From contig NW_027117343.1 of the NCBI RefSeq assembly GCF_038025025.1, forward strand, positions 806,001 through 870,000: a stretch of 64,000 nt of DNA. The letters are read 5' to 3'. Position numbers and translations under genes: made by a program. This document shows, piece by piece, positions 7,091 to 49,873 of the stretch (within the stretch, counting starts at the first letter, position 1; each line of letters starts with the position of its first letter). Origin of the DNA: Phyllosticta citribraziliensis. Lineage: Eukaryota. The notes under the pieces were generated by a model, which saw only the letters and a program-made list of their open reading frames with translations, was not told the origin of the DNA and did not search any database.

Positions 7091-7573
7091 TCTTCCTCGT
7101 GCCCGCCACACCTGCCACCATCCGTTCCTCACCCATCTCACTCTTCAGTCTTTTTCCCCGGCAGTTGACCTGTCGACGGCGCTCACGGTAATAAAGAAAT
7201 AATCGTCTCTTTGAGCGGCATCTCGTCTTTGTCCTCTCTCTTTGTCGCGACTCCCATTTTTGGCCCACCCCGCCTTGTCCCCTCCTCCTCGTCTTGACAA
7301 TCACATTGTCCACTTCGACCGCCACTCGCGTGCGACCATTCATAAACACTGCGCCCAACCTCGACTCTCGACAATCCCATCATCCATTTCACCGCGCACT
7401 CACCTTTTGACAAGGTCCATCTCCAACCAACTTTTTCCCAAACAAGTAAGTCCACTCCTCTCCAGCGTCACGGCGAGCTTGCTCGAAAGACACGGACCCC
7501 CAGAAGCTGTATTATATTTGTTTGCAATCACCAACACTCGTGTCTCACTTCTAGGTCGCCGGCGACTAACATC

Positions 7574-8311
7574 ATGGCAACAGCCGCAGTTCTCGCCAAG
7601 CCCGTCCTCAAGTTCGCCTTCAAGCAGGGCAAAAAGGCGTACAACAAGCGCCAGTACCAGAAGCAATTCGACCAGCAATCCCAAGAGCACTACGTCCAGC
7701 ACGACCACGCCTTCCCGAGCACTCTGCACTCTCAACAACATCAACAACCTACGGCCCCTCCGCCAGCACACACCACCGACTCTTATCCCTACCAGCACTC
7801 GTACAACCAGTCCAACATGCTCAACCTCGGCAGCAGACTCCCCAAGGCCGACAGCGGCTCCGGCACCTTTGGCCTGTACCTGCGCATCTTCACGCGCCTC
7901 TTGCAATTCGTCATCGGGCTCACCGTGTGCGGGCTCTACGGGCGCGACCTGCACGCCGCACAGAAGGCCGGCGTCTACGCCGACTCGAAATGGGTGTACG
8001 CCGTGACGGTTGGCGGCCTCTCGGCGCTGACGGTCCTCATCTACATGATCCCGCTGTTCAAGAGCGCGACGCTGTTCGCGTGGGACTGGACGCTGTGGCT
8101 GCTCTGGCTGGTGCTGTTCGGCATCTTCGGCAAGATGTACATTTCCGAGGACGCAGAGGGCGACGCCGGCGTCCAGCGCATGAAGAACGCCGTTTGGGTC
8201 GACCTGACGGCCCTGCTGCTGTGGACCTCGACCGCCGCCTACGGTGCCGTCGCCTTTTGGCGCGCCAGGCGCGACGTCCAGCTGCCGTACGCGAAGAGCG
8301 AGGAGGCTTAG
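7574..8311 (+). CDS. MARVEL-domain four-TM membrane protein, 245 aa
   Basis: R..QFVIGLTVCGLYG.DL, SKWVYAVTVGGLSALT, WDWTLWLLWLVLFGIFGKMYI and RMKNAVWVDL are the typical fungal MARVEL motifs; strong GC3 codon bias. Confidence 0.88.
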   Translation: MATAAVLAKPVLKFAFKQGKKAYNKRQYQKQFDQQSQEHYVQHDHAFPSTLHSQQHQQPTAPPPAHTTDSYPYQHSYNQSNMLNLGSRLPKADSGSGTFGLYLRIFTRLLQFVIGLTVCGLYGRDLHAAQKAGVYADSKWVYAVTVGGLSALTVLIYMIPLFKSATLFAWDWTLWLLWLVLFGIFGKMYISEDAEGDAGVQRMKNAVWVDLTALLLWTSTAAYGAVAFWRARRDVQLPYAKSEEA

Positions 8312-9285
8312 GTGCCCGACGCGCAGCACGGCGAGCGCGGCGAGAAGGACTGCTGTTGTGCGTGCATGGACAAGTGATGCGCCATCCCCACTGCGGCGAG
8401 GAGGTACCGCGGACATGAGTGGAGTGGAGCACGAATGAATGGGCTGGCTGGCTGGCTGATGCGCGCGCCTTTTGTGCCGCGCAGGCGTTCGTTGATGGGC
8501 TTCGCGTTTGGCTCGATACCCACCACCTCTCTTATTTATTACTTGCGAATCAAAAATCAAGTTCATGACTCCTCAACTCTACTATTTCCTCTTTGCTCCT
8601 CTGTCTTGTCCCTGAACGTGTATGTCTATGTTTGGGTGCTGCGTATTGTACTTAGTCGCAGCGGCGTTGCGCGAGCTCAACCAAGAGAAGGACTACACTG
8701 CAAGTGAAAGTGAAAGAGGACCTGACCCGCCAGCAGCACTCCAGCTGTCGTCTGTACGCATCGGCAGCGACGGGAATACTCGCTTGTCTGAATGTTCTGC
8801 CCGCATGTCTACATAGGTAGTAGATGTGCCCAAAGCAGCCATCAATCACATACCTGTATCCAGTGCAGTCTCTGCCCACTATTTCACGGAAAGAGTCTCT
8901 TCTCTCTGCATACGTTCCTTGCAACCCTCTCCAATAACCCCACGCCCAAAGCAGCCATCACGTGCAGTGGTCAAGTCTTGGAATTCTTGAGAGAGCGATG
9001 TTTGGGAAAAGGTGCATAGGCAAATGCAGCGCGGTTGAATGGTCCTCGGACGCATTTGGACGTCATGTGACGGGTTGGAAGATTAGGACCTAGAAAGGGG
9101 GAGAGGATTTCTTTAGTTTGGCTACATGCATATACTCGGGCTACTCTGACTGCTTTGACCCAGTCCGTTCAGTATTTGCAACCATCCAGCCAGTCTTGCA
9201 TTGCACTCTTACTCTGGCTCTGCTGGAGGTGTAGCGTACGAAGTACGCAAATCACTCAAGACGCAAATCATCATTGCTTTGAAGT

Positions 9286-9625
9286 TTCGATTTCGATTCC
9301 GATTCCGACGCATTATGAGAAGAAACTTTCGCGCACTCAAAAAAACGAACTCCGAACTCCGAACAGCAAAACTCCTCCATCCCACCGCTCGATCCCAGAG
9401 CTTTTCTTTCAGACCGATTGCTCCACCGCCCCATGCGTGCGTGCGTGCAACCATGCAGTCCGGAATACCGTCGGAGCACCGGAAGGTAAACTTCAAAACT
9501 GCCGACTGCTTACACTGAGAACCGCAACTCCTCCGCTTTGAACACCGTAAACCGCAAAACCGCAAAAGTCCTCCGCAGCAACTTCCCGCAAACACCAGAA
9601 AAGCAGAAACCAGAAACCAGAAACC
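9286..9625. repeat. Cluster of short tandem repeats (TTYCGA x4, AACTCCG x2, ACCG[CT]AAA x3, CAGAAA[AC]N x4) at the left edge of the structured block
   Basis: Seen directly: ttcgatttcgattccgattccga, aactccgaactccgaac, accgtaaaccgcaaaaccgcaaaa, ccagaaaagcagaaaccagaaaccagaaacc. Confidence 0.7.
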
Positions 9626-9656
9626 CTCCGCGTGGTGCCCGAATGGCGTGGAAAAG

Positions 9657-10210
9657 GCGCCGTATGTACAAGTGCCGTGCCGTCGTAGTGTTGTCGTCGC
9701 CAGAAGACCGAGAGTGTGTTTGTGCTGCTTGCCGCAAGAAATAGGCAGACAAAGGTGTGGCAGCGGCGGTCGATGGATGAGGGACGACGGAAGGACGGAC
9801 GGACGAGTGGCGCAGGGCGTAAAGTGTTTGTTTGTTTGTCGCAGCACGCACGAGCGGGTGCTGGCCTTTGCCATTCAATAAGCACGCCCCCAAAGGCTGG
9901 GGCACCGAGTGTACATGAGAGTCGACGGCCGTGGGTGGATGCGTCGAGTCCGAAGAGAAGAGAGTAAGAGCGCCGTATGTACAGGTGTCGTTGTAGTCGA
10001 AGTACCGAGAGCCGCGTATTGCAAGAAGGCGAAGCAGCGTAGAGTGTCGGACGACGGATGATTAACGACGAAGGCGCAAGGCGGAAAGTGTTTGTAGCAG
10101 CACACACTAGCGGGTGCTGGCCAATGCCATTCAATAAGCACGCCCCCAAAGGCTGGGGCACCGAATGTACATGAGTCGACGGCCATAGAGGCGGCAAATG
10201 TGTCGAGCCA
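9657..10210. repeat. Two imperfect tandem copies (period ~255-315 bp), repeat family 1
   Basis: GCGCCGTATGTACA at 9657 and 9970. A ~75-bp block CGGGTGCTGGCC..TGCCATTCAATAAGCACGCCCCCAAAGGCTGGGGCACCGA.TGTACATGAG at 9855 and 10111. Confidence 0.9.
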
Positions 10211-10332
10211 GAGGAATGTACACTGTCGAGCCGGATCAGACGCGGGAAAAGGGCGCTGAACAGTAAAGGTCGGCTGTCGAGAACAAGGCGAAAGGGCAGA
10301 CAGGAACCGGAGGGGAAGAGGTCCTGAATGGG

Positions 10333-11785
10333 GCGATACGGGTGCCGAAAGGTAAGAGCGTATCGCGGGTCGACGGGCAGGGCAGAGCCACAGTCATGAC
10401 GAGTGTCGATGAGATCCGGAGGGTGTTGATCAGGGCATGGTAGAGGCACCACAGTCATATCCATGCATCAACGGTCGTCTCGAGAGGGTTCCAGGTTCCA
10501 AGGACGCGAGAAGCCGTGACAGAGGCCTCACCACAAAGCATGTCTGGCGCTGTTGTCCGTAAGGATGGGCGATACGGGGGTCCCGAAGGTGCTGCGGTAT
10601 CGCGGTCGAGTCGAATGGAACGAGGCAGAGGCTACCACCACAGAAGCGTGCCGAGTTGCTTAGACGAGGTCCTGGAGAAGGGAATGGAGAGGGGCGATCG
10701 GGCGTCCGGAAGCGCGTGCTGTGATCGCGGTGTCGACAGGCAGGCAGAGCCACAGTCATGCCGGTGTCGAGCTGGTCTGGATGGTTCCAAAGGACGCGAG
10801 AGTACGGGTTTGACGCCGTGTCTGAATCTCAAGCTACAAGGCTGCTCCGCCACGAGTATGCCGAGTGCTTCGTCCGATGGGGCGCTGCAGGGTCCCCGAA
10901 GGTGCTACGGCAGCGCGCAACTGGTCGAATTGTCCGTTGGAGGTGAGAAAGGCTTAAGGCTGAGCTCGAGGCCCAGCTGACAGCACATTTCTCGAGCATC
11001 AAGACGTAGCCCCGCCAAAAGCTTGTCATGCGCTCTGCCCGTGGAACGAATTCGCCAGTCTCTCCAAAGACGCGGTTTGTCTGAACTACGAAGGAACAGC
11101 TGACCCCGCTTCAGGCGCAAGACAGCCCCGCCAAAAGCCGTACGAGTGCCCTATCGATGGAGGAAATGAATGGGCCAAGTGTCCCTCAGTAGCGGCGCCA
11201 CCCGCTCTGATGAAAACGACTTTCCCGTCCATGGACGCAGTTTGGCTGAACTCCAAAGGAACAGCTGACCCCGCTTCAGGTAACAGACAGAGGCTCCGCC
11301 AAGCTTGTCACGATGCCCTGTCCATGGTGCTCCGCTATGGAGGCTTGCAAGTGTCCCTCAGAAGCGGCGCCACCCGCTCTGACGAAAGACGACTTGCCCG
11401 TCCATGGACGCAGTTTGGCTGAACTACAAAGGAACAGCTGACCCTGCTTCAGGAAACAAGACAGAGGCTCCGCCAAGCGTGTCATGATGCCCTGTCCATG
11501 GTGCTCCGGTATGGAGGCTTTTGCAAGTGTCCCTCAGCAGCGGCGCCACCCGCTCTGACGAAAGACGACTTGCTCATGTTTGGTGTCCATGGACGCAGTT
11601 TGGCTGAACTACAAAGGAACAGCTGACCCTGCTTCAGGAAACAAGACAGAGGCTCCGCCAAGCGTGTCATGATGCCCTGTCCATGGAACTCCGGATTGTG
11701 GTCATACGAGGTCCCCGAAGGTGCTACGGTATGCCGGTCGACAAAGGCTGGGCAGAGCCACAGTCTTGCACCCAGTGTCGACATT
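10333..11785. repeat. Dispersed repeat family 2: four hairpin modules (10333, 10569, 10882, 11703) and associated GGCAGAGCCACAGTC modules (10381, 10743, 11751)
   Basis: Shared loop GG(T)CCC(C)GAAGGTGCT(A/G)CG closed by inverted repeats; identical GGCAGAGCCACAGTC in three places. Confidence 0.85.
11000..11690. repeat. Tandem array of ~172-190-bp units (three near-identical copies at 11177, 11349, 11525 plus one diverged upstream copy), repeat family 3
   Basis: AAGTGTCCCTCAG-N-AGCGGCGCCACCCGCTCTGA ... GTCCATGGACGCAGTTTGGCTGAACT ... AAAGGAACAGCTGACCC.GCTTCAGG recurs with periods of 172 and 176 bp. Confidence 0.95.
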
Positions 11786-11963
11786 GTCCAGAAATAAACG
11801 TCTTCATCGAAGGGGGGTCATGCGCCCTCAGTTCACGGTGGCCCAACACCGCTACCTGAGCGACCGTCTTACAGTTGCCTCAGCCCTTTTGTGATGGAAT
11901 CGGGTTGCGCTATGCGCCTTAAATGCCCGTTGGTGCGAGTGCAATGCTCGTCTTGTATATACC

Positions 11964-12042
11964 GCGTCGTCCTGGAGGTCGGAGGACGGAGGGAATGATG
12001 AATGAGCCGGAAGAAGTGCGTCGTCCTGGAGGTCGGAGGACG
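11964..12042. repeat. Two identical 25-bp hairpin-forming copies, repeat family 4
   Basis: GCGTCGTCCTGGAGGTCGGAGGACG at 11964 and 12018; CGTCCT/AGGACG stem. Confidence 0.9.
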
Positions 12043-12123
12043 AAGAAAACGCGAAAAGTGGCCAGGAAGGTAGAAAGGGCATCATCATGTAAAGGTCGTG
12101 TTCCAGAAAGTTTTCCAAGACTT

Positions 12124-12657
12124 GTCGGGCATCAATTCGACCGTGGTATCTGCTCAACTCGAGAGAGGTGTCCCGGGTGGTCAAGGTTCACTGCGCTTTG
12201 GGCTGCACGAGACAGGACTCGAGGCTTCAAAGCTAAGCTCGCTAAAGCGAGCCTATTCGCGATTAGCCGTCAAAAGGGTAAGAATTGACGTCGCGGCAGC
12301 AGATAGAGATAGGCTTGAACCAGGAGAAACCACCGGGACGTGGAGGAGCGGATAGAGTGGGAATGGTCGGCTGAATTGATGTGGAAATGGTCGGACATCG
12401 ATTCGACTGTGACGTCTGCTCAACTCGGGGGAGGATGTGTCGGTGGTCAAGGTTCACTGCACTTTGAGCTGCACGAGATAGGGCTCGAGGCTTCAAAGCT
12501 AGGCTCGCCACAGCAGAGCCTATTCGCGATAAACCGTCAAAAGGGTAAGGATTGACGTCGCGGCAGCAGATAGAGAAAGGCTTGAACCAGGAGAAACCAC
12601 CGGACGTGGAGGAGCGGACGAAGTGGAAATGGTCGGTCGAATCGATGAGGAAAAGGG
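12124..12657. repeat. Tandem duplication of a 266-bp unit, repeat family 5
   Basis: GGTGGTCAAGGTTCACTGC at 12176 and 12442; CCGTCAAAAGGGTAAG.ATTGACGTCGCGGCAGCAGATAGAGA.AGGCTTGAACCAGGAGAAACCACCG in both copies. Confidence 0.95.
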
Positions 12658-12801
12658 AAAGTCCTGGAAAGGGTCGGAACACGGAACAGCGGCTGCTGAT
12701 TGGTGTGCGAGAAGAAAATGCGCGAGCCTGAAAGGAAGTGGTCGGCTGGATGGAAAGGCGCAGAATCGGGCACACTCAGCCGCGGGAGGGTGGTCGGTCA
12801 T

Positions 12802-15800
12802 TTAAGACCGCCACCAATTGATGATAAATAGCACCAGCACAGCAACTTGACCGTAGCCAGCGATCTGTGTGCGTGCTGGGGAGAAGGAGATGTCTTGGGA
12901 TAGGGTGTTCGCCTCGTGCCAGAGCTCTTCTTGCATGCTGTGTCCAATTGCCACGCTGGTCAAAAGGAAGAAAAACAGCAGCAGCATGAAGAAGAGAAGA
13001 GGCTGGCTGAATATGCTGGAGACGGATTTGCCAATGCAAGAAATGCAGGCGGGCGTCCTAGACCTCTTCATCGATGCTTCGAGGGCATCAATCCCGCCAT
13101 CAATGCGGTCAACACGCGAGTTGACCTCGTCGCGGCCCTTCAGAAGGAGCTCCTCAAACTCTCTGAGCATTTCTTGTGCCGACTTGGTGGGAAAAGCAGT
13201 AGAGGAGGACGGCTGGGCCAGCGCCGTCACCAGAGTCGACTCCGCGGGCTCAGGCGAAGAGACGGAAGTCAAAGCGCCAGAGGAGGATTGGTTGACCGGA
13301 GCCAGCTTAACTGAGCATACAACTTCGGTCTGGGTACCAGTCGACTCCGTGGGCTTAGGCGAAGACTCGGTGGATGGCGCAGCAGATGATGATGGCTGGG
13401 CCGATGTGAGCTGAAGAGACTCGGGGGCGGCGTCCTCGGAGTCCAACTCTGGCGCTTCTGAAGAAGGCATGATGCTCAGCGCGGTGGATGAGAGTGCTGC
13501 TGGCAAGGGTGAAGACGGCGTGGGGGCAGCTTCGTAGTCGGCCAACACGGCCTTGAGTGCATCGTAACGAGCCTCAAAATCGGCGAGCTGTGCCGTCAGT
13601 TTCTTGATGGTGATGTCCTTGCTGCGGTTGGCCCTAGCAGCAGTCGACATTTCAAGCTCCATCTCGTCGGAGGCGCCGGAGAGCTCGTTGGTAATGTTGG
13701 AGCTCGTGGTTTTGGTACTGCTGAGCGCACGCTGAGCCCGGCCGTACGAGAAGTTGGATGACGGGCCCGCCTCCTGCTGCGTGGGCATGCGGGTTCTGCC
13801 GGCGTTGTTCTTGAGGTCCTTTTGGAGCTTGAGATTGAGGGACCTGAGCTCTTCATGGCGCTGCTCGAGCTGGCGGCTGTGGGCGACCTCCGTGTCCACG
13901 TTCTGCTGAATCTGGCTATTGTCGGCAGTGAGCTTTGCGTTGGCATCGGTAAGCTTCATGACCTTCGCCGTCTGGGTGTCGAGCATGAAACGGAAGTTGC
14001 GGGTGAGGCTTTCCGACTTGCTCTTCTGCTGGTCCAACTCGGTCTGCTGCTGGTCCAACTCGGTCTGCAGGTCTTTGGCCTTGAGCTTTTCCTGCTCCAG
14101 CTCACTCTTGGTGGCGTCCAACTCTTGCTGGAGGACTTCACTTGAAGTCGCCTCGTTGTTGATGTAGAGGCGGGCTGACTCGAGAGCGGCTTCAGCGGTC
14201 TGAGCCCTCTGCTCCAGCTGGTTGAGGTTTTTCTCCCACTCTTCGGCAAGCGAGTCGCGTGAATCGATTTCGAACGCGTGGTCTGACTCCATGCAAATGA
14301 TGTGCTCGTCCAACTGGTCCTTGTCGCTCTTGAGGACCTTGATCGTGTCGTTGGCGCTGTCAAGCTCTGCATTGACGTTTGCAAGAGCCTGCTTGGTCGC
14401 CTCATCGGCGGCAACCTCGCGAGTGAGCTTCTTGTTGAGCTCGTCGGCATTGCTCTGGGCCTCGTCTCGGGCCTTGGCAGCAGAGGTGGTCAGGTCGTTT
14501 GCTTCCGCCAGCTGAGCCTCCAACGCGGCAAATTTCTCGCTGGTGCGAGCCTGGTCCGTCTTGAGCCTGGCGTTTTCTGCCTCCAGGTCGGCAATCCTCC
14601 GCTCATTCTCCTCTTCCTTCTCCGTCCTCAGCCTTTCCGTGGTTTCGTATTCCTCGCGCTTCTCCCTCCTCTTCGCTTGGGCTGCCCTCTGCTTGCCATT
14701 CCTGTGGGCCGTTCCTCTGCGCGTGCGAGCGGAACGAGCCGCGGGCTCGGAAGTGGGGGAGAGAGACCGGTTGGAAGAGGTCTCGGGCGAAAGAGGGCGG
14801 GTGGCAGAGTCGGTGGGTGAAAGAGGGCGGATGGGAGTGGTGGGCGTCTTTGGGCCGGTGGGCGAGGTGGGCTTGGGTGAACCCATCCTGTTGGGGTTCG
14901 ACCGAGACTTCTTGAGGAAGTGGCCGCGGATTTGGGCCAGGGAGCAAGGGGAGAGGTTTGCCAAGGTCTGCGCCTTGGGCGACGTGGGCGGGGCGAGGTA
15001 CGTGGGCGGGGCGAGGGTGTTGACGTTCACGTTGACGTCGGGGTTGGCGTCGGGGGCAGCGTCGGGGAGCTCCTCGTAGTCGACGTTGGGGCCCTGGGTG
15101 GGCTCAGCGTCGGGCAGGTCCTCGTCGTCCTTCTCGCTGTCCGCGTCGAGCAGTTCACCTGCGTCGACAGAAAACGGGGCCCTATCATCGGTTAGAAGTG
15201 AACTTCACATGTCGTGTGAACTTGTAGGCACTTACTCGACGTCCGCAGGCGCGTCCTCGATCACAACGTCGGCGTCGGCCGACGGTTCCTCCTCGGAAGG
15301 CGCGTCACACAGCTCCTCGTCGTCTTGAGGCGGCTGGGGACGGGCAAAGGGGTAAGCCAACGGCTGCGCGTCGGCTATTTCTTCGTCTTCGTCGTCGGAC
15401 GGCGACGGAGAACGGGCAGCGCGCTGCTGCTGCAGCTCCCCAAAAGAAGGGAAAACCACCGGCTGCTGCGGCTTCTGCTGCTGCAGACAATCGAAGACCG
15501 ACCGCTGCGGCTGCTGCTGCAGAGGGCGGAGAACAGATTGCTGCTGCGGCTGCTGCGGCAGAGCACTGAAGAGGGGGTGCTGCTGCACCGGTTGCGGCGG
15601 CGGAGGAGGCGGCGTCGTCGAAGGGCGACGAAAGAGAGGCTGCTGCTGCTGCGGCGGCGTCAGGCACGCGGGAAGGGCGGCCTGGGAGAAGAAGTCGGCA
15701 GGGTTAACCTGCAACGGACGCGCGCAGTCGATCTCCTCGTCCTTGGGCGGGGACGATGGCGGAGGAGGGGGGACAGCAGGAGAAGGGGTGGTCGGGGCGG

Positions 15801-16503
15801 CGGCGACGGCGACAGCCAACTTCCCGAGGCCGGGGATCCGACTCGGCAGAAGCTCAAAGGGCGCAGAGGAACGGGCCGGAGCCTCGTTCATGCGCACTGG
15901 CTTCTGAAAGCCCGGGATGTTGCCGTCGGGGAAGGCCCTGGGCTTCTCGGGCGGCGGCGCGTTCTTGGCCAGGTCCAACAGATCCGAGAACGTGGACTTT
16001 GGCTTCACCGGAGCAGCTGGCGGGGCTGCCGGCTTCGGCTGGGGCTGGGGCTGGGCAGCTGGCGGCGCTGCCACAAAGGAGAACGTCGCCGGGGGCGTCG
16101 ACTCGGAAGCCGGACGCAGGTACACGCTCGGCGAGGAGGTGCTGGGCGGCGGCGGAGGGATGGCGGCGGCGGCGTTGGGGGCAGCCGGAGATGGGGTCGC
16201 GCCCTCGGTCTTGACGCGCTTCGAGCGCTCGGGCGATGGCGACGGGGAGCGGGCGCGGCGGCGGCCTCGCGGCCCTTGCGGCGAGGGCGAGGGGGCGATG
16301 GCGCGGGCGGGGCGGTTGGGAGAGGGAGTCCTCGGGACTCCAAGAGGAGAGGTGGCGGCTGGGGTGGTGGTGGTGGTGTTGCGCCCAGCGTAGGGGTGGC
16401 TTTGGGTCATGGTGGTGAGCTCAGCGGGCTGCTGAGCCATGACAAAGCCGGCGCCCACGTTGCGCACGACACCGGAGTCTTTCTTTGGCATACAACCGAC
16501 CAT
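12802..16503 (-). CDS. Orphan 1215-aa protein: Pro/Gln-rich disordered N-terminus, long coiled coil, Ser/Thr-rich linker, two C-terminal hydrophobic helices; exons 16503-15236 and 15181-12802
   Basis: Intron 15182-15235 (GTAAG...CTAAC...TAG) fuses the 516-aa and 742-aa ORFs in frame (1268+2380 nt). Strong GC3 bias, heptad-rich segment, TM-like LLFFMLLLFFFLLTSVAIG and VAVLVLFIINWW. Confidence 0.8.
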
Positions 16504-18628
16504 GGTGAATGTGTGATCGGAGGTCTGGTTGGATGGTTGGTTGGAGGACAAAGAGGGAGGACAAAGAGGGCAAAGGAAGGGTGGGTGGTGTGGTGTGGAG
16601 TCGGATGAAAGAAAGAGAGGTTGCGAAAGGTAAACAACTCCACGGCGAGAGGTGGATGGGACGGCGACGGCGACGGCGACGGCGGTCTGTGCTCTGAGCG
16701 CCTGCCTCGTGGGCGCTGCACCGAAGAGAAACTCCTGTCCCATAACACCGCCCGCTGCTTCGCCGGCTATACTCTGGCGCAAATGCCAGTGGGTACTCCA
16801 CGAACTAGACTATATCAGGACAGCTCGACGTCGAGCGCAAGCAGGTGCTGGTGCCCTGCCAGGCCTGGAGGCTTGGGACGGGATGGACAAAGGCCGCGAT
16901 CTTCTCCTTTGGTGTTGTGCACGGGATCGGCACAACAAAGGAACACCACGCTGCTGAAGCCTCAATCTGGCAAGTTGCGCAATGGAAGCGATTGAAAAGA
17001 TCCAATTGACAGTATAATGACTGACAATCTTTGAGAAACAGAACAAAGGCCTACCTTTCTTTGCGCACACGTCCCCGAATCCCGTCTCTTTTGGACAAAA
17101 ACACTGGCTTCGACTGCCTGTGCGAAAGCAAAGCCCACGAGAATAAGACTCGGGATGGAAAGATCAAAAGACAAAGAAGACTGTCAAAGAATTTGAAATG
17201 GACAAAGAACAAGGAGCCCGGCTGTCGAGGTGCAACCAGTCCGGGCACCAAGTTGGTCCTGCGTCTGCAACCGGAACGACTCTTTGACATGAGGAAACCA
17301 AAGCGCTGACCTAGAACGAGGTACATTAGGTACGGCAAGTCTTCAGGGAGGATTTTGAAGGCGCTTACCTCGACGACCGCCTCTTGCGCATTGAAAGCCT
17401 GGAGTGGCCCTCCAACAGCCCACCCACCGGCCGGCTGGGCAACCACCGCTCCAGACGCAGCAGCAAGCCCATTTTCGTTGGAAATGCTGCCATCTGCTCG
17501 TTCAGCGGCTTACTACATACCACAGGCTCGTCATAGCACCGACGTTGTCTTCGTATGACAATTAACACCCAGGCGGTCGATGAGACGACGTTGAAAAAAA
17601 GCCGCTAGGCCCGATGGACCCCTGCAGGGCGCCAAGCGCGGGATCTCTCTTAGCGCCTGGATCCGCGCGCTTGCGGGGGCGGACTTGGCCCGCCACAGGG
17701 AGGCGTGTGCGTGGCGATCGATGACGAGAGCTGCCCCTCCGCTCGCTTCGTTCAGCTCCGACAAGGATGGTCGATCAGAATTGCGATGGAGGAATAAAAG
17801 GAGGGACAAGCTAGGGGCTGTTGATGTTGAACAGGGTTGCCGGTGCAGGGCAGCCGAGTCGTGAGCGGCGGAAGCGTGGATTCGTTGGGGACACGTTCGC
17901 TGCTGCTGCGACAACGCTGGCGGACCCTGCGAGCTGTTGCTGCCGCCCTTGTCAACATTCAACGAGCAACCTCGCGGCCCAAAAGCGTGCATTCATGTTG
18001 TCGAACTGCGATCTTCAGGACCAAATTCGGTTGGCGAGCTCCAAAATTGACTTCCGTGGTCCTCAAAGAAGCGTCAGGATAGCGACGGCGCTTCCCAGGA
18101 CTCACAGAGAGTGAATGAAGACGGTGGTTTTAGGCTTTCGGCAGGGTCGGCGGCCGTCGCTCTGTTTCTATTGTTGTCGTTGCTTCGACAGGGCTGTAAG
18201 ATTAAAGGCGCTGATAAGAATCTCTTGGCGGTGAAGTGGGGGGAGCTCGCTGATCGCTTTCCCTAAGGTCGGAGGCTGGTGAGGCTACATCGTAGGGCAA
18301 TCTTCTCGCAAATGGGCGATAACAGAGTCGTTGAGATGGAAATGATGGCTAGCGTAGAAAGACTTCTTGATTCTTTTTCAATAGCGAGCTACTATAACCC
18401 AGGTGGAAACGGTTTTGGAAACATCTACGAGGAGCAAGCGAGCGTCAAAGCACAGCGCCAGAATAGAGGAAAACAATCGGCAAAACAACTGGCCAAACCA
18501 AACCTCGTCCAAACTCCTGAAAACGCCAGCCTCCTCTCGGCCTCTCGAGAGCTCAAAATCCGCTTGCATAATTTACGTGGATAAACTTGGCTGCAATCCA
18601 CGACGAAGAGAAGCACACGTGAGCTGGT

Positions 18629-42168: not shown

Positions 42169-44623
42169 GGTAGTTTACCGTCATCCTTTCGTCTATGGAT
42201 AATGTGAGGGTCATTGCTGGTCATGGTGCACAGAGAGAGGGAGCGACAGTTTTGGGTACGGAATCGTTTTCTTTTTTCCGGGATGGAGAATGGACGGATT
42301 GGGATCTTAGGTACATGGCATTCTTTGACAGCATAGACTGGACTGCAGCACGCATGGCCATGTGCGGCGAGTCCGGCAAGGTAATGCGCATTGCATTTTG
42401 ACAGGAAGCTCTTGCGGATACAATAGAAGCTTTCGTGCCGTGTCGTGGGTTCCGCATGAAAGTATAAAGTCTAAATGCGCCTCGGCGGCGGTGAACATGG
42501 TTGGAGCGTGATGTGTGCTGGTCGATCAGTCAGTCAGTCTGTCGGTGGTGGCAACGACGAAAGTCAACAAGCTCAGCTGCCAGCCAGCTGCCAGATAAGC
42601 TGCTGTGCACGCAACCAATCAGGGCGTCTTGTGCACCGCCTTCTGCCCCCCGGGATATCGTGATTTTCCTCGGCTACCCGCCCGGTGAGTTGTCCTGATG
42701 GATGAATAATGACTGGGTGGGAGCGAGGGAGGCTTGCAGACGCGCTGCTTGTGCTGATAGAGCGCCTGCTATGCTCACGGCTTCGTGGTGTTGTGCTTGT
42801 GCCGTTTGCAGCCATCGTCGTCGATGGGAGCGTTTGTCATTCATGAGGGTGTCTGCAATTGTGCTGCTGGAATGCGTGCTGCTCTACGTGCGATCATGTA
42901 CGCAGATTGCGTGCGCGTTTCCCCCTTTTCCTACCTAGAGGCAATGCGTTCACTGCATACTGTAGGTAGAGATGTACCATGTTTAGCTCCCTGCCGTCTA
43001 TCATCTCACCATTATCATCTCCGTCATCGTCCAAGTCGTCGACGCAATCCATCGCCCTCTTGGCCGCATGCCTCTCCCCAGAACCCCAAACTCAATTCCC
43101 CCGGCTTGGTTAGCTGCTGCGGGCACCCGTGTCGGTCGGTCGGCCAGTCGGTCGGCTGAGACATGTCGTGCAATGCAGCACGTCGACCAAGCCGCGAGAC
43201 CGAGACATTGGTTAGGCGCGCCGGCACGTGGTGCGCTGTGGATGTCGCGTTTGCTTTGTTTGCGCGCCGCCTGCCGTTGCACTTCTTACTCTGTGTTTCT
43301 TTGCCTGGTGCGAGGGATTGAGTGATTCTATTTTGCCTCTGCTTTGTTCCTGTCATGCTGGGAGATGGCAGTAGGTACATGTAGAGAGCGCCAACCCAAC
43401 CAACAACTGATACCCGCCCGCCCGTTCAACGGTACGACGACACGCAGATGTTTCTGGCAAATGACTCGGGCACCTGCATGAAGCGGTGCGGGCGCTCAAC
43501 GGTCAACGCGCCGTCTGGCACCTTGACATTCTTTGACAACCTTGACGCATCTGAAGGCCAGACAGACAGTCAGTCAGTCAGGTGGCGCTGCGCATTCTTG
43601 ACGAATAACCTACCTGTATCGCAGCCAGGGAATATCAAAAGGTAGGTGGGGTTCTTTTCGACTGGATGGTGGGCACGAGACCACGAGACCGCCACGGGAC
43701 ACCCGGGCACACACGCCTACCCCCCAGTTGAGGTCAACAAAGCAAAGCGTCCCTCGTTGGCTCTGTCCTTGAGCAGGTACGCCGACGCATCGCGCCCTTT
43801 CTTCATCCCGCCGCTACACCAACCAACACCGCCGGGCCGGGCAGCTGGACAGGACAGGACAGGTCTTTCTCCCGCACCGCACCCGCTTGCCAGGTGAGAA
43901 GGAGCACTCGCCTCACGCGCAATGCACCTTGCTGGCCTCCATGGCACCTGATTAGCGACGAGGCGGTGGCGAGCGGTCGGGCAGGCTGGCTGCCACACTG
44001 GTGGAAAAGAAGAAGCAAGCGGTAAGATGCCTCCATGTAGCCGAAATTGACTTTGTGGTCGGCCCGGCCCGCGGTTTGGTTTCGGTCTCAGCGTGGACTG
44101 GGGCCTCTCGCGAAAGAAAGGGAAGGCTGGCATGTGAGGTGAGGCTGTTCGAAACAGAAGAGGCCTCAGGCAGGTAGGTGTTTTGGCGACGGTGTTTTTC
44201 GAGCCTTTAATGTCTTCAAGAGCTTGGATGTCTGGACGGGTTCGGGAACGGTCTCGCTCACGTTGGTTTCGAGAATAGCAGCCTCGTTGTGGATAGACCC
44301 CCAACGCCTGCTTCTCGACGTCGAGTCTTGACGGCAGTCTCGCTCAACGTCGACGGCAATCTCGCCTTGTGTGCGCGCTCACTTCTTGATTCGGATGAAT
44401 CAGGGCGTGCGTGGAAATTGTCTGGAGCAGTCATGCTTCGTTCCGTCCTCCTGCTCAGTCTCCTCCTGTTCTCTCCCGCGCATTGGATTGGACATCATTT
44501 GCCTGATTCTCATTTTGAATATTCTTGGGCCCCTTGGACGTAACCCGCAACCAGACGCTGCGTCCAAGAGTACAACGAAAGCTTTGTTCCCTGCCATCGT
44601 CGACTCGAGAACGCCGTTCGTCG

Positions 44624-47600
44624 ATGCTGTCGCGAGCCAGCAGCGACGCCGGGACCCGCCTGCGTCATGCCAAGTCGTCTTCGTCGACATATTCCAACGG
44701 CTGTCCAGCGAGTCCCACCCGGGTCGACCAAATGGATCCGTTCATCGTCCGCGAGCAAGCCACGGCAGCCGCTGTGCAGGCGTATGAGCGAGCCTGCGCC
44801 ATGGAGCATGCACGGATAAGAGAGGAGCAACGCAGTCTAGAGCTCAGCAGAAATCGCAGCAACACTAGTCGCCGGTCACACGGTGGCTCCCAGGGCTCTC
44901 ACTTTCCCGCCAGGGCCTCGAGTCTTCGACAAGCCGGTGAATCTAGCGCCACGAGAAGACGCACCTCGCCGAAGTTGCGGAGAGTCAGTGATGAGAGTCA
45001 ACCGCAGTTGATCATGGAACAACCTCCTCCCCGTTACACCCTTGTTCGTGATCCTCCGCCACCTGCTCCGCGTCTTTCTCTGGCGCCGGATATCAAACTG
45101 CCTGTATCCCCTGCTCCACCCTCGCGTGCGGCGCCCTCTGTACCGTCTGTCGCGTACGCAAACACACCAGCGACGCCGGCACCGAGGGAGGTTCGCAAGT
45201 CTCGTTCAATGTACAACTCTTGGAGCATTGGACTGGGGACTCCTCGAGACAGACGCCACGACGTTTCCGTGGACCTGCGTCGCTCTACCAGCCACCGGGT
45301 AATCGAGAACCAGCCGCCCGCCAAGTCAGGATTCAGTCCTGGCAGCGTCAGCCCTGAGAAATTTGGCAAGGCAAGTGTTGAAGAAGTTAATGCATCGCGG
45401 GACAAGTATCTGCAGGATTACCACAAGGGCCGCAAGTTGAAGACCAGACCGTCGTTTATCCTGACGCCGTTCAAGAAGCGCCAGGACAAGGAGAAAGACC
45501 ACACTGTTCTTGCGACGCCCAGGGAGTGCGCCTCGCCTCCTCCTGATGCCACTCCCAAAGCCGTCTCCCCGGTCGAAGGCACGACAAAGCATGAGAAGGA
45601 GAGGTCATTTTCCAACTCCTTCAGAAACAAGTTCAAGCGCGTTTTTCGCAAGACTTCAAACCCAAAGGCGTCAAATCTTCCTGTGCAGCAAGTCGACGCC
45701 TCGAGGTCTTACTATGGCGACTCAGTTTCGACATCTCAGCGAGAGGTGTCTGCTACGACGGAGCGAGTCGGCTCCATGTCGGACGACAGCCAAAGAGTTC
45801 CCTCGCATCAGCGAACGACCTCTGGTGCATCATTGCCACTTTCTCACAGGTCGAGCGCCGGAGGCTCTGATGGCGACGTTAGCAAGTCCCGTGTCACGAG
45901 CTGGTCTAACTCTTCTGCTCCGGGTAGCGTCACTTCTCGCGACCCAGGACGGCTCTCTATGATTCCCGAAAACGGACCCGGGACTACAAAGAAGCGTAGT
46001 GGATCCTCCATTTTGGGCAGGAGTCCATTTAGGCGGCCTCTGCATGCTTCACCCCAGGCAGCGTCAAAGGAGCTTGACACTTTCGATGTTTACTCGGCGC
46101 TCAAGTCGAGGCTGGAGAAGGCTGGATTGGACAGCAACATCGACCCTGACCTGCACCATCCGGAAAAGGCCGCCAGTTCGAAGAATGAACGCGATACGCT
46201 ACCTTCTCAGAGCCGGATGAGTTCGACGGCTTCCAGACTGTCGCGTGCCACCAGAGCTACCATCCGCGCCGTTACCCCTGAGCGTGGTTTTCGCTCGCGG
46301 TCAAAAGAGAGAAACGACATGGCTTCGGTCCCGATGTATGATGAATCTCTCGGCATACCAAAGCCCAAAAAGTGTCACGAGCCAGAGGCATCAGATCCGA
46401 CGGCTGAAGTTCCCGAACTCACTGTTCCTCGCACTCGCCATCCACAGCGTGCCGTCAAGGCGACGTTGCCGACGCAGGAGCAAATTACGAAGCGCAAGCA
46501 TTTGGCCGATAGTCGTTGGAAGACACAACTAGAGCAGGGTCAAGCTTCCGGCCATCTCGACAGTTCTGGCACCATCTCAGCTGAGGAGAATCCATATGAG
46601 CTTACGCGGTTGAACCAACCCCCGAGCCCAAGTAAGACCATTCCAACGCCACCACGCAAGTCGAGCAAAAGACCCTTCGAAGCAGCCGAACTTCTCAGAG
46701 CGTCCATTGTCTCGCCGAGCGTCTACTCCAGAGACTCGGCTGGCAACTCGCCAGTTCGCAAACCCAGCACGGCAACCATCAATGGGCCTCCGGGCATTGC
46801 AGTCATCGTGTCGAGCCACTCGGCCAAGAGCTACACGCTCGGATCCTCACCCGATCGCTCGAGGGCAGGCAACGTAGAGCGCTCGGCGCAGTCGAGCCGC
46901 GACTGGAAAGACTGGCTCAGCAGGGAGGTTGCTGATTTCGAATCCGACGATGTCGACGTTAGTATGTCGGAGGATTGGCTTCTTAAGCCCGCCGCTGGCC
47001 ACCAGCGCGAACATGCGCAGATCAGCGAGGACGACGAGGATGCTGTCGTTGCTCCCGCCAGCCAGAGATACGCTTCCAGCCCCAACCTGCGCTCGACAAT
47101 TGTAGCCCCTGCCTCGCGCTCCGCGTCGAAATCGGACATGCGTATTTCCAAAGGCGCGACGTCTTTCCCGGACCTCGACTTGTCAACGCAGCAGCCGCGG
47201 CAGCGGCCTCGATTGGCAAAGAGCTCGTCGACGCTGATGAATGACCGCTTTCCTGTGTTGCGGACGAGACGCAATGGCAGCGCGACGACTAGCTGGCGCA
47301 CCCAGTCGAGCAGCAGCTACAGCTTCCACGGCGAGGCGAAGCGCTCGTCGTCGAACCCGGTTCTCCTTTCGCGGCCGCCGTCTCAGGCGCAGCAGCGCGT
47401 GCAAGAGCAGCACGGTAGGCCTGAGCACTACCATCCGTCGCCTCCACTGCCGACTTTGGCGTCGACCTCGGCGGCAAAGGAGAATCACCGTCCTGTACGC
47501 CACCGCGACGAGGCTGCTGCCAATGCCGGAAATGCAAATAAACACACTGGCTCGCTCAACGGAAATGCCGCTACCGCGCCTGCGTCGCTGAAACTCCAGC

Positions 47601-48811
47601 CGCGCTCCTCGCACTCGAGTCTGGCGCCGTACACGACGAGCGCGCAGGACGCGGCGGCTGGCCTCCCGTTTGCTGGCCCTCCGCCGCCCCCGGCGCCCCC
47701 TTTGCCCAATTTCTCTTCGTCGGCCTTTTCCTCCTCGTCCGTTACGCCGTCAAATGGTACTGCGCTGCCGTCTGCCAGACACGCGAACGCGGGTGGGAGT
47801 GGGAATGGGAGGGAGAATGGAAATGGATATGGCAGCGTCAACATCGGCAACCCCCTCCGCTTCCGCGCCGCGCTCGCCGCGTCGTCGGCCTCGGGCTCGC
47901 CGTCGCCGTCGCAGGCTTCATTGAGGTCAAAGGCGGGCTTCGTGGGCGGTGGTGTCGGTGTTGGGCACGCGCGCTCGGCTTTTGAGCTCAGGGGCCACGC
48001 ACTCGGGCAAAGTCAGGCCGCCGGATATGGAGGCCACCCCAGAGGCCCGGCCGTGACGGCGCGCGTCCGCCGCAAGCCGCTGAGCAGCAGCGCGAGCACG
48101 TTTGGCACTGTGGGCACGAAGGGCACCATGACGACGATGGGGATGCAGGGAGGCCCGCGCCTGTCGATGGGCAGTGGCGGCAGCAGCGAGACGATGGCGT
48201 TTATCATGCGCGGTCCGTACGGAGCCGGAGGCGGCGACGTGAGCTCCAGAGCCAGCGTCAGCGTCAGCGGCGGCGAAGAAGAGGCGGACGAGACGGAAGG
48301 ATTCGGCTACGGCGTCCATGACTACCCCGGCGGCGGCTTTGCCTACGGCTACGGCTACGGCGTTGCCTACCACGACGCCTCTGGCCACCCTGTGCCTTTT
48401 GCTTCGTCGGTGGCGGACGGCTCGGTCCCGCAACTGCAGCAGCAGGGTCCGCTCAAGGAACGCCGCAGCATGGGGCGGCTGTGTGGAGCGTTTGGTCCTT
48501 CTACGCATCCTCCTCCTCCTGTCCCTGGATCTTTTGGCCCCGCTGCCCCGGCTCGTCTCCCCGTCGACCGCGTCCCGACGCCTTCGCCCATGGCGTCTGC
48601 TTTTTTCAGCGGCGGCGGCGCCGGTGGTGGTGGTGGTGGTGGTGGCAACAACAACGGCAGCGTCACTGGCGGCCAGCGCTTGGCCGAGAGGTGGTTGAGT
48701 GCGCGACAGGTGGGTGGTGGTGGGAGTGTGAGTATGAGTGGTGTGAATGGTGTGAATGGTGCGAGGCAAATGAGGAGTCGCAGTCGCACGGGTAGTCCGG
48801 CGTTTGTTTGA
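44624..48811 (+). CDS. Large intronless Ser/Pro/Arg-rich disordered protein, ~1395 aa, function unknown
   Basis: 4.2-kb open frame from ATG 44624 (MLSRASSDAGTRLRHAKS). Short conserved-looking islands (SFRNKFKRVF, SRVTSWSNS, VYSALK, SPSVYSR, SRDWKDWLS) in low-complexity sequence. Confidence 0.8.
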   Translation: MLSRASSDAGTRLRHAKSSSSTYSNGCPASPTRVDQMDPFIVREQATAAAVQAYERACAMEHARIREEQRSLELSRNRSNTSRRSHGGSQGSHFPARASSLRQAGESSATRRRTSPKLRRVSDESQPQLIMEQPPPRYTLVRDPPPPAPRLSLAPDIKLPVSPAPPSRAAPSVPSVAYANTPATPAPREVRKSRSMYNSWSIGLGTPRDRRHDVSVDLRRSTSHRVIENQPPAKSGFSPGSVSPEKFGKASVEEVNASRDKYLQDYHKGRKLKTRPSFILTPFKKRQDKEKDHTVLATPRECASPPPDATPKAVSPVEGTTKHEKERSFSNSFRNKFKRVFRKTSNPKASNLPVQQVDASRSYYGDSVSTSQREVSATTERVGSMSDDSQRVPSHQRTTSGASLPLSHRSSAGGSDGDVSKSRVTSWSNSSAPGSVTSRDPGRLSMIPENGPGTTKKRSGSSILGRSPFRRPLHASPQAASKELDTFDVYSALKSRLEKAGLDSNIDPDLHHPEKAASSKNERDTLPSQSRMSSTASRLSRATRATIRAVTPERGFRSRSKERNDMASVPMYDESLGIPKPKKCHEPEASDPTAEVPELTVPRTRHPQRAVKATLPTQEQITKRKHLADSRWKTQLEQGQASGHLDSSGTISAEENPYELTRLNQPPSPSKTIPTPPRKSSKRPFEAAELLRASIVSPSVYSRDSAGNSPVRKPSTATINGPPGIAVIVSSHSAKSYTLGSSPDRSRAGNVERSAQSSRDWKDWLSREVADFESDDVDVSMSEDWLLKPAAGHQREHAQISEDDEDAVVAPASQRYASSPNLRSTIVAPASRSASKSDMRISKGATSFPDLDLSTQQPRQRPRLAKSSSTLMNDRFPVLRTRRNGSATTSWRTQSSSSYSFHGEAKRSSSNPVLLSRPPSQAQQRVQEQHGRPEHYHPSPPLPTLASTSAAKENHRPVRHRDEAAANAGNANKHTGSLNGNAATAPASLKLQPRSSHSSLAPYTTSAQDAAAGLPFAGPPPPPAPPLPNFSSSAFSSSSVTPSNGTALPSARHANAGGSGNGRENGNGYGSVNIGNPLRFRAALAASSASGSPSPSQASLRSKAGFVGGGVGVGHARSAFELRGHALGQSQAAGYGGHPRGPAVTARVRRKPLSSSASTFGTVGTKGTMTTMGMQGGPRLSMGSGGSSETMAFIMRGPYGAGGGDVSSRASVSVSGGEEEADETEGFGYGVHDYPGGGFAYGYGYGVAYHDASGHPVPFASSVADGSVPQLQQQGPLKERRSMGRLCGAFGPSTHPPPPVPGSFGPAAPARLPVDRVPTPSPMASAFFSGGGAGGGGGGGGNNNGSVTGGQRLAERWLSARQVGGGGSVSMSGVNGVNGARQMRSRSRTGSPAFV

Positions 48812-49873
48812 GTTTGAGTTTGTTTGGCTGGTGGTGTGTTGGTGGGGTGACGTGACGTGGAGCGGGTAAGGGGGGAGGAGAGGAGAGGAAAGGGGGGATG
48901 GGGGGGATGATGGGATGGATTGGCGATGGGCACGGCGCGATCGAGGTAACTGAAGTATCCTTTTGTTTGTTTCTGGCGTCTGCTTTCTGCTGTTGCTACT
49001 ACTATTACCAATACCACTGCTACTGCTACTGCCTTTTCTTGTCTTCTTGTTATTCGTTCTCCGCTTCTTTGTGCTTGTTTCGTGCGTTGTACTTTGTCAG
49101 GTCGAGTGGAGTCACTCAACGGAGTCAAGTGCAGCACCGGTAGCAATTAGAAGAAGCACTCCTTTTGTCTTTTCTGAGTTGGCCAGCGGTTGATTTCAAC
49201 TGCAATCGACTATCAGATGGCAGAAATGCGCCTTTCATGAAACCCCTCGATGGTCGAAGATCTGTGTTCGTTAGGTCGCCTGCTGACTTGACTGCCTGGA
49301 AGTAAGGAAGGAATTAAAGTGAATGGATAGAGATGAAGGATTTCCTGTGTTCGCAATGTAGTGGATAACTTCCGTTGGGAAGATTCTACGTGCGTGTACT
49401 TATGCTCAACGCATCTGATTTCACTCCTTCCACCACTCCCCCCCCCCTGCGCAGTGAAAAGACTCGCCGTTCAACGCGGTGCTAGAGCCGTTCCACCGCA
49501 AACCATCGTTTATTAAATGTCTATAGACGTGCGCCGAACCAATGGCAACCTGGCGTCGAAGCTGCCGTCAAGGGGGTATCAAGGTGGGTGAAAGGGAACC
49601 AAAAGACCAGTCCAATACACGAGAACGCCGTTTTACCATGCCTGATTTTCTTGTCCCATGGTTTCTGGAATGGCGACTGATGAATGAGGGAGGGAGGGAG
49701 GGAGGGAGGGAGGTTGCTTGGCTACGCTTGCGCGCCCTTGGGGTGGATGCTGTGTTCTTTGGTTTTGCTAAGGATGTGTTGGAGCGCCTCGGAGACCTGT
49801 TTGCCTTGTTGTTCCATGAATTAAGAGTCGAGATCGATGAGGTTAGGGATAGGGCCGTGGTCGTCACCGTCAT

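Follow-up and report, generated by a model that had tools for sequence, protein, structure and literature searches.

Between the 3' ends of two convergent genes of the filamentous ascomycete Phyllosticta citribraziliensis lies a 4.5-kb non-coding gap that holds an array of short hairpins. The question raised by this locus is what has kept these hairpins paired while the sequence of their stems changed. The gap belongs to the stretch of DNA analysed here (the window), 64,000 nucleotides of contig NW_027117343.1 (positions 806,001 to 870,000, forward strand; NCBI RefSeq assembly GCF_038025025.1), and all coordinates given below are window coordinates. A sequence-only reading had described four of the hairpins (A to D) and argued that their compensatory pairs are hard to explain by neutral drift; it proposed a protein-binding or catalytic RNA or single-stranded DNA motif. 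We find that the pairing has been kept by matched changes beyond those expected from neutral point mutation. The best explanation, to which we assign a probability of about one in two, is that a long non-coding or 3'-extended transcript carries an array of RNA stem-loops that bind protein. The hairpins are probably a structured RNA element not described before, and we put the array forward, on the evidence of this one locus, as a credible candidate for a new fungal module of structured RNA.

Hairpin copies, their pairing and known families

The four hairpins lie at the positions, and have the stems, that had been read from the sequence. All are given here as read on the plus strand. Hairpin A (10333-10366) has an 8-bp stem (GCGATACG/CGTATCGC) and an 18-nt loop with the inner arrangement UGCC-GAAA-GGUA. 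The 7-bp stem of hairpin B (10569-10603; GCGATAC/GTATCGC) encloses a 21-nt loop of the conserved type. Hairpin C (10882-10916; GCGCTGC/GCAGCGC, 7 bp) carries the conserved 21-nt loop as well, with two pairs changed on both arms. Hairpin D (11701-11735, core 11703-11733) pairs GTCATAC with GTATGCC around the conserved 21-nt loop, with one pair flipped and one U x C mismatch; alternatively, GG(U)CAUAC/GUAUGCC would form 7 bp with a bulged U. A fifth copy, hairpin E (10694-10728, plus strand), lies between B and C and was absent from the sequence-only reading. Its stem (GCGATCG/TGATCGC) consists of six Watson-Crick pairs and one G.U, thereby contributing one further double change and a G.U pair, and its 21-nt loop extends the pairing and has an apical G-C flip.

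Hairpins B, C and D have loops of 81-90% identity, with GGTCCC(C)GAAGGTGCT in common. This common sequence, the c(UUCG)g that it forms on the minus strand of these three copies and the GAAA on the plus strand of A are all as previously described. A 16-nt loop probe, with up to two mismatches allowed, matched three sites in the 64 kb, all within hairpins B, C and D. Between C and D the loop is kept (19 of 21 positions identical) while the arms (3/7 and 5/8, or 8 of about 14 stem positions) and the flanks (0.56 and 0.48) have diverged, a pattern expected of a recognised loop on a free stem and counted in favour of the RNA explanation.

A covariance model was trained on copies A-E and run on both strands of the window with filters off. 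The five training copies scored 50.1 (A), 58.8 (B), 49.7 (E), 54.2 (C) and 57.5 bits (D); the other 18 of the 23 hits with E-values up to 10 scored at most 12.6 bits (best E-value 0.83). The covariance-model search had been suggested for this and related fungal genomes; run on the 64-kb window, it recovered the five copies and no further one.

Pairing was evaluated on an alignment of the five copies made by MAFFT with no structural input; a tighter second alignment adds the inner helices. In the outer stem, 34 of 35 cells (seven pairs in five copies) are paired and four of the seven pairs have changes on both sides. Only 4 of 500 shuffles equalled this result and 1 of 500 equalled the covariation score, and slid controls had 3-49% of cells paired. 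When the inner 3-bp and apical 2-bp helices are included, 56 of 59 cells are paired and 6 of 12 pairs show double changes, which none of 500 shuffles matched on any measure. RNAalifold, unprompted, returned exactly the same structure on the plus strand, inner helix included, and the outer stem plus the apical 2 bp on the minus strand. Consensus energies were -13.8 kcal/mol for the plus strand, which has three more pairs, and -11.3 kcal/mol for the minus strand. In a star-tree simulation of point mutation with per-lineage change of 0.10-0.25, five or more paired double-change cells arose with P <= 0.003, and at least 34 of 35 paired outer-stem cells with P from 0.02 down to 0. The shuffles, slid controls and simulation therefore bear out the claim that the compensatory pairs are hard to explain by neutral drift. 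Pairs kept through two-sided changes beyond neutral expectation, as found here, are the generic mark of a selected structured RNA. What the pattern suggests is either constraint on a fold of the single strand or mutation that affects both arms symmetrically. All but one of the seven double changes are transversion flips, and symmetric C-to-T transitions of the repeat-induced point mutation (RIP) type were for this reason rejected as a source of the paired changes.

Perfect 7-bp stems with loops of 3-25 nt occur at 1.6 per kb across the window, so that a single hairpin is unremarkable. The 3-kb repeat zone around the array contains eight of them, four from the A-E family, compared with 4.45 +/- 2.8 in shuffles. 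With the family left out, four hairpins remain, against the same expectation, which indicates that palindromes are not generally maintained in the region. An internal control is provided by the perfect 7-bp hairpin at 9864-9897 (GCCTTTG...CAAAGGC), whose 93%-identical paralogue (GCCAATG) has two broken pairs. Compared with dinucleotide shuffles, two hairpins fold better: A (minimum free energy -18.2, z = -4.3) and B (z = -2.35).

The hairpin element matches no described family. Rfam 15, which includes hammerhead, twister, pistol, hatchet, HDV-like and VS ribozymes, small nucleolar RNAs (snoRNAs) and cis-elements, gave no match in the 64 kb at gathering thresholds. With E-values up to 10 allowed, the single match in 9000-13500 was to sR1 (13382-13442), at 14.5 bits against the 45 needed and outside the hairpins. 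The suggestion of a catalytic motif found no counterpart in the sequence: neither a ribozyme nor any other Rfam family appeared even at this permissive level, a hairpin of 35 nt offers no features of a catalytic core to test, and nothing read from the locus suggests catalysis. ARAGORN predicted no transfer RNA (tRNA) gene in the window, as a tRNA or a tRNA-derived short interspersed nuclear element would require. Substrates of Rnt1-type RNase III have an AGNN-type tetraloop on a long stem, and the specificity of the enzyme in this class of fungi may differ; the apical loops found here are GAAA, CGAA or GAA, and GAAG on the plus strand and UUUC, UUCG and CUUC on the minus strand, none of them AGNN. 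Helitrons end, on the 3' side, in a CTRR terminus that a hairpin precedes by about 10-12 nt, and their copies are dispersed. Here GG(G)TCGA lies downstream of four of the five copies, and CTGG follows only C and D, at differing distances. A telomerase-template idea was set aside, the sole match to the telomere repeat with one mismatch being at 49843, far from the locus. None of the 58 loci returned by a metagenome scan with the loop pattern has flanking complementary arms or aligns to the window by BLAST, and we take them for chance or otherwise unrelated matches. A non-exhaustive literature search on Phyllosticta with non-coding RNA and tandem repeats retrieved nothing relevant.

The spacer has no coding frames. 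No Pfam family was found on its long frames, and none of the 20 ATG frames of at least 50 amino acids in 9100-12800 is protein-like (no homology search was made on these). The repeat periods of the region (185, 256, 266, 313 and 361) are not multiples of three.

Duplication history and probable transcription of the spacer

The copies share a common descent. Hairpins A and B belong to one unit (10270-10640) and E and C to a second (10641-10990), the two making up 10270-10990. These units align over their full length (score 87, compared with 10 +/- 4 for shuffled sequences), indicating that the copies arose by local duplication. In the alignment the units are 79% identical in ungapped columns, and gapped columns number 100 of 314 in the flanks and 11 of 78 in the hairpins. 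As read from these comparisons, the two-hairpin unit was tandemly duplicated long ago and has decayed since. Most 60-nt flanks compared between copies are at random-level identity (0.45-0.60, versus 0.49 +/- 0.04 for random pairs drawn from the region). Copies A, E and D have a common downstream block; B, C and D have the common loop and resemble one another weakly in the flank upstream. The features of both types thus meet in D.

The block downstream of A, E and D, GCAGAGCCACAGTCATG, lies in each case within a second hairpin on the plus strand. After A this hairpin occupies 10369-10410 and has GTCGAC...GTCGAT around the block (10382-10398); after E it occupies 10732-10771 (block 10744-10760) and after D 11737-11782 (block 11752-11768, one mismatch). 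The pairs of the second hairpin are invariant among units and so offer no covariation evidence. GTCGAC, itself a palindrome, is present in pairs. The full block was found nowhere else in the window; a shorter form occurs as a fourth, inverted copy at 9211-9223, making four occurrences in the window where 0.24 are expected. This inverted copy (GCAGAGCCASAGT) sits 10 nt from a perfect palindrome, GCGTAC-GAA-GTACGC (9234-9248), and together they may represent a sixth unit, F, inverted and shortened (9211-9248, minus strand). The covariance model did not pick up this possible unit.

Tandem repeats, local and nested in one another, make up the zone from 9782 to 12656; their periods are close to 256, 313/361, 185 and 266 nt, and none recurs elsewhere in the window. 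Four different repeat families are found within 3 kb. At its left end, 9782-9930 and 10049-10184 belong to a duplication of about 256-267 nt (82.6% identity by BLAST), the first copy of which carries the hairpin at 9864-9897. Hairpins C and D are separated by a younger 185-nt tandem array (11048-11694) of 2.9 copies at 92% identity and an older fourth copy. Each 185-nt unit bears a perfect 12-nt palindrome (CGTCCATGGACG), and towards its 3' end (GACAGAGGCTCCGCCAAGC...) it is homologous to the flank that precedes hairpins B, C and D, from which it follows that the array grew out of the hairpin unit. A reading of the 185-nt repeat as a C/D-box snoRNA was rejected, TGATGA being present in one copy only and without support from Rfam. 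Further to the right, a 6-bp hairpin (CGTCCT GGAGGTCGG AGGACG) is duplicated at 54-nt spacing (11964-12045), and 12124-12656 is a 266-nt tandem duplication at 87%. Short imperfect microrepeats are present near the left edge of the contig-covered spacer, at 9285-9310 (cgatttcgattccgattccgac) and at 9594-9625 (ACCAGAAA-type, period 14).

The locus is nuclear, with BEACH, subtilase and RRM domains among the neighbours. To the left of the gap is a gene for a MARVEL-domain membrane protein (7574-8311, plus strand), the best relative of which is a MARVEL domain protein of Phyllosticta citriasiana (90% identity), with further relatives in Dothideomycetes. To the right, an 800-residue open frame (12802-15204, minus strand) codes for a coiled-coil protein with a hydrophobic C-terminus (a C-terminal membrane anchor) and no Pfam family. 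Two other frames, of 525 residues (15232-16809, minus strand) and 1430 residues (44519-48811, plus strand), have no Pfam family at E-values up to 0.01 and 0.001, respectively.

Transcription of the spacer is probable. The evidence consists of strandless contigs, four sequencing runs having been compared with the locus; the main run (X1) is labelled as RNA by guess. From this run there are eight pieces, all at least 99% identical to the window. One contig of 1568 nt, at a depth of 4130, covers 7568-9135, nothing covers 9136-9276, and contigs with depths of 157, 84, 57, about 42 and 36 extend over 9277-13454, interrupted only by a short break inside the 185-nt repeat array. They take in nearly the whole of the repeat-rich non-coding spacer (9277-12801) that precedes the coiled-coil frame. 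Depth that varies 100-fold across unique sequence is easier to reconcile with RNA than with genomic DNA, and we infer the nature of the run from this. The deep contig reaches about 820 nt past the stop of the MARVEL-domain gene and breaks off abruptly at 9135, which would mean, should the run be RNA, that this gene is very highly expressed and has a long 3' untranslated region. A second run (X11), a true RNA-seq library from a plant metagenome, contains a relative about 96% identical with low-depth contigs over seven pieces of the spacer, one of which (10604-10874) includes hairpin E. Its uncovered stretches (9000-9754 and 12322-13500), like those of a further run (X5), were not counted as evidence.

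Another run (X3) derives from a related genome, or from two, with numerous substitutions relative to the window. The differences listed are 40 of 301 (all at or before 10693, 29 of them in 9900-10693), and none of these falls inside A or B, an observation of little weight. The stretch 10901-11205 is covered twice, by contigs with 2 and with 20 differences, which indicates two related genomes or haplotypes. The substitutions over 9000-13500 are asymmetric on the plus strand (G>A 71 and A>G 52, versus C>T 21 and T>C 30). This asymmetry exceeds the expectation from base composition and could come from transcription-linked or repeat-directed mutation.

Weighing the explanations

Under the explanation that we prefer, the module would consist of a 7-bp outer stem of free sequence carrying a segment of roughly 21 nt with a small apical C-G/C-G helix and a tetraloop. 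Three copies would present the conserved sequence GGUCCC(C)GAAGGUGCU if read on the plus strand, or its complement with c(UUCG)g if read on the minus strand. Old local tandem duplication would have multiplied the module within a non-coding transcript that fills the convergent gap. This transcript would be a long non-coding RNA in its own right, or else the minus-strand coiled-coil gene would have a very long 3' extension. The stems would then most likely present the conserved loop to a sequence-specific RNA-binding protein, making the array a multivalent platform of the kind known from Xist and NORAD. The second block GCAGAGCCACAGUCAUG, flanked by two GUCGAC sites in the units of A, E and D, may provide a further site for binding. 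The most specific version of this proposal is tentative: a fungal RNA motif in which a free 7-bp stem presents a conserved 16-nt loop, the multivalent array acting as decoy or scaffold for an RNA-binding protein within a long non-coding RNA or a 3.5-kb 3' extension. What the sequence shows is the copies, their common descent, the pairing kept through double changes, the conserved loop of B, C and D and the lack of coding frames and of a known family; transcription is probable, and protein binding, the strand and any cellular role are what we infer.

Several observations weigh against this explanation. The hairpin signal is comparative, not thermodynamic: C (z = -1.18), D (+0.35) and E (+0.32) fold no better than shuffles, and 120-nt windows across the spacer have no excess stability (mean z of -0.27 on the plus and +0.07 on the minus strand). 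Conservation of the loop is limited to three copies, those of A and E being 55-67% like the others. Between the two units, ungapped identity is equal in the hairpins and in the alignable flanks (79% in both), which therefore differ in indels and not in substitutions. The evidence comes from five or six paralogous copies at a single locus. Transversion flips with no G.U intermediate, as six of the seven double changes are, are unusual for stepwise compensation in RNA and fit template switching in one step. A choice of the plus strand from its energy is weakened by its G-rich composition, which inflates G.U pairs. Two apparent transcript ends 140 nt apart, with depth rising toward 9277, equally fit a transcript of the minus strand, possibly a 3.5-kb extension of the coiled-coil gene that ends near 9277. 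As to transcription itself, the RNA label of the first run is a guess, its contigs are strandless, and carry-over of DNA into the metagenome library is possible.

The competitor that survives best is template switching, in which the palindromes are kept at the DNA level because short switches during replication, with the hairpin serving as template within one strand, copy a change in one arm onto the other, and the hairpins are functionless, self-renewing by-products in a neutral tandem repeat. Pairs would then change on both sides in one step, as the six flips that lack a wobble intermediate would suggest, and the two double changes in the single stem of hairpin C also agree with it. Template switching is documented to create perfect stems and to convert several mismatches at once, and patterns of multiple compensatory change are enriched in ribosomal RNA (rRNA) data (PMC8794818). 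The possible copy F has lost one pair symmetrically, and its short loop, once the flanking block is used to set the orientation, reads as the reverse complement; the lack of thermodynamic excess in hairpins and spacer fits as well. What the mechanism leaves unexplained is the 81-90% identity of the B, C and D loops amid diverging stems and flanks. Some five or more independent events would have to fall within a target of 35 nt while palindromes nearby decay, as the paralogue of 9864-9897 has done, and both the G.U pair of E and the G.U-rich inner helix are mismatches at the DNA level. The evidence that short stems are maintained in this way is called circumstantial by the authors of that work themselves (PMC8794818). 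Because the B/C/D loop is kept, G.U pairs occur and the paralogue of 9864-9897 has decayed, we favour the RNA explanation and regard template switching as unlikely.

It is quite improbable that the array functions instead at the DNA level, with the loop, GTCGAC and GCAGAGCCACAGTCATG bound by a DNA-binding factor or used in a process, such as replication or recombination, that acts on single-stranded DNA hairpins. Conservation of two blocks of 16-18 nt among decayed units, the fourfold presence of one of them against 0.24 expected and the palindromic, paired GTCGAC sites would be consistent with such a role, and the inversion of one unit would be of little matter to DNA sites. A binder of duplex DNA, however, would conserve the sequence of the arms and not the complementarity of varying arms. 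Extrusion of a cruciform from duplex DNA is made unlikely by the 21-nt spacer, and the position of the array, with a gene ending on either side, is not that of a promoter.

We consider it very doubtful that the hairpins belong to a neutral, decayed minisatellite whose apparent compensation stems from chance and from an alignment chosen around hairpins. Short perfect hairpins are common in this G+C-rich window (at the density given above), five sequences are few and the copies were recognised partly as hairpins. Yet, on those measures that relatedness inflates least, the shuffles, slid controls and neutral simulation reject chance at a level of roughly 1 in 300 or better; MAFFT set the columns with no knowledge of the structure, and RNAalifold gave the same pairs.

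A small mobile palindromic element (a fungal mitochondrial G+C-rich hairpin or a miniature inverted-repeat transposable element-like sequence) that landed several times in the spacer is highly improbable: the hairpin and short conserved edges (TGGGG ... GGTCG) are indeed best kept and most flanks barely alignable, but the units are homologous over their full length, hence derived by local duplication, the 64 kb contain no further copies on either strand, and no target-site duplications or terminal repeats were seen on reading the sequence.

Known systems and significance

The preferred explanation, an array of protein-binding RNA stem-loops, has counterparts elsewhere. Iron-responsive elements and phage coat-protein operators resemble the array in that they conserve their loop sequence and let the stem vary as long as it pairs; the loop of the array differs from theirs in sequence and size, and Rfam, which holds such families, gave no match. 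Fungal mitochondrial G+C-rich palindromic or double-hairpin elements are likewise short hairpin units with a structure kept among copies. They are dispersed and mitochondrial, whereas the array is nuclear and its copies arose by local duplication.

Closest in the proposed way of working are the A-repeat and other repeats of Xist and the units of NORAD, which resemble the array, as interpreted here, in the local tandem amplification of units within a non-coding transcript. NORAD units are about 300 nt long, have diverged save for short motifs and short stem-loops, and contain 4-bp and 8-9-bp stem-loops whose pairing is supported by stem-preserving changes (PMC4947167). Expansion of tandem repeats has been reviewed, with Xist as example, as a route to multivalent protein binding (PMC6316617). 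The array differs from both in having no sequence relationship to them, in being found in a filamentous ascomycete and in having five or six units; by analogy, a functional likeness may be proposed, not membership.

Template-switch hairpins are similar to the array in one-step double changes that restore perfect pairing, several per stem, and those studied are functional rRNA and microRNA hairpins (PMC8794818). In the array, three copies share a conserved loop and there are also G.U pairs, which mutation of this kind does not yield. If template switching were nevertheless the cause, the locus would be a clean natural example of mutation maintaining a hairpin without selection, an open question in RNA evolution (PMC8794818). 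Either outcome is informative, although the evidence comes from one locus with five paralogous copies.

To our knowledge, RNA structures supported by covariation outside the classical families are rare in fungi, and non-coding RNAs built of repeat modules are known mainly from animals. If the explanation proposed here is true, the array would be among very few repeat-module long non-coding RNAs with covariation support in filamentous fungi. Should it be a protein-binding platform, it would offer a compact case with five natural hairpin variants, different stems and two loop classes, and would help show how tandem duplication builds multivalent RNAs.

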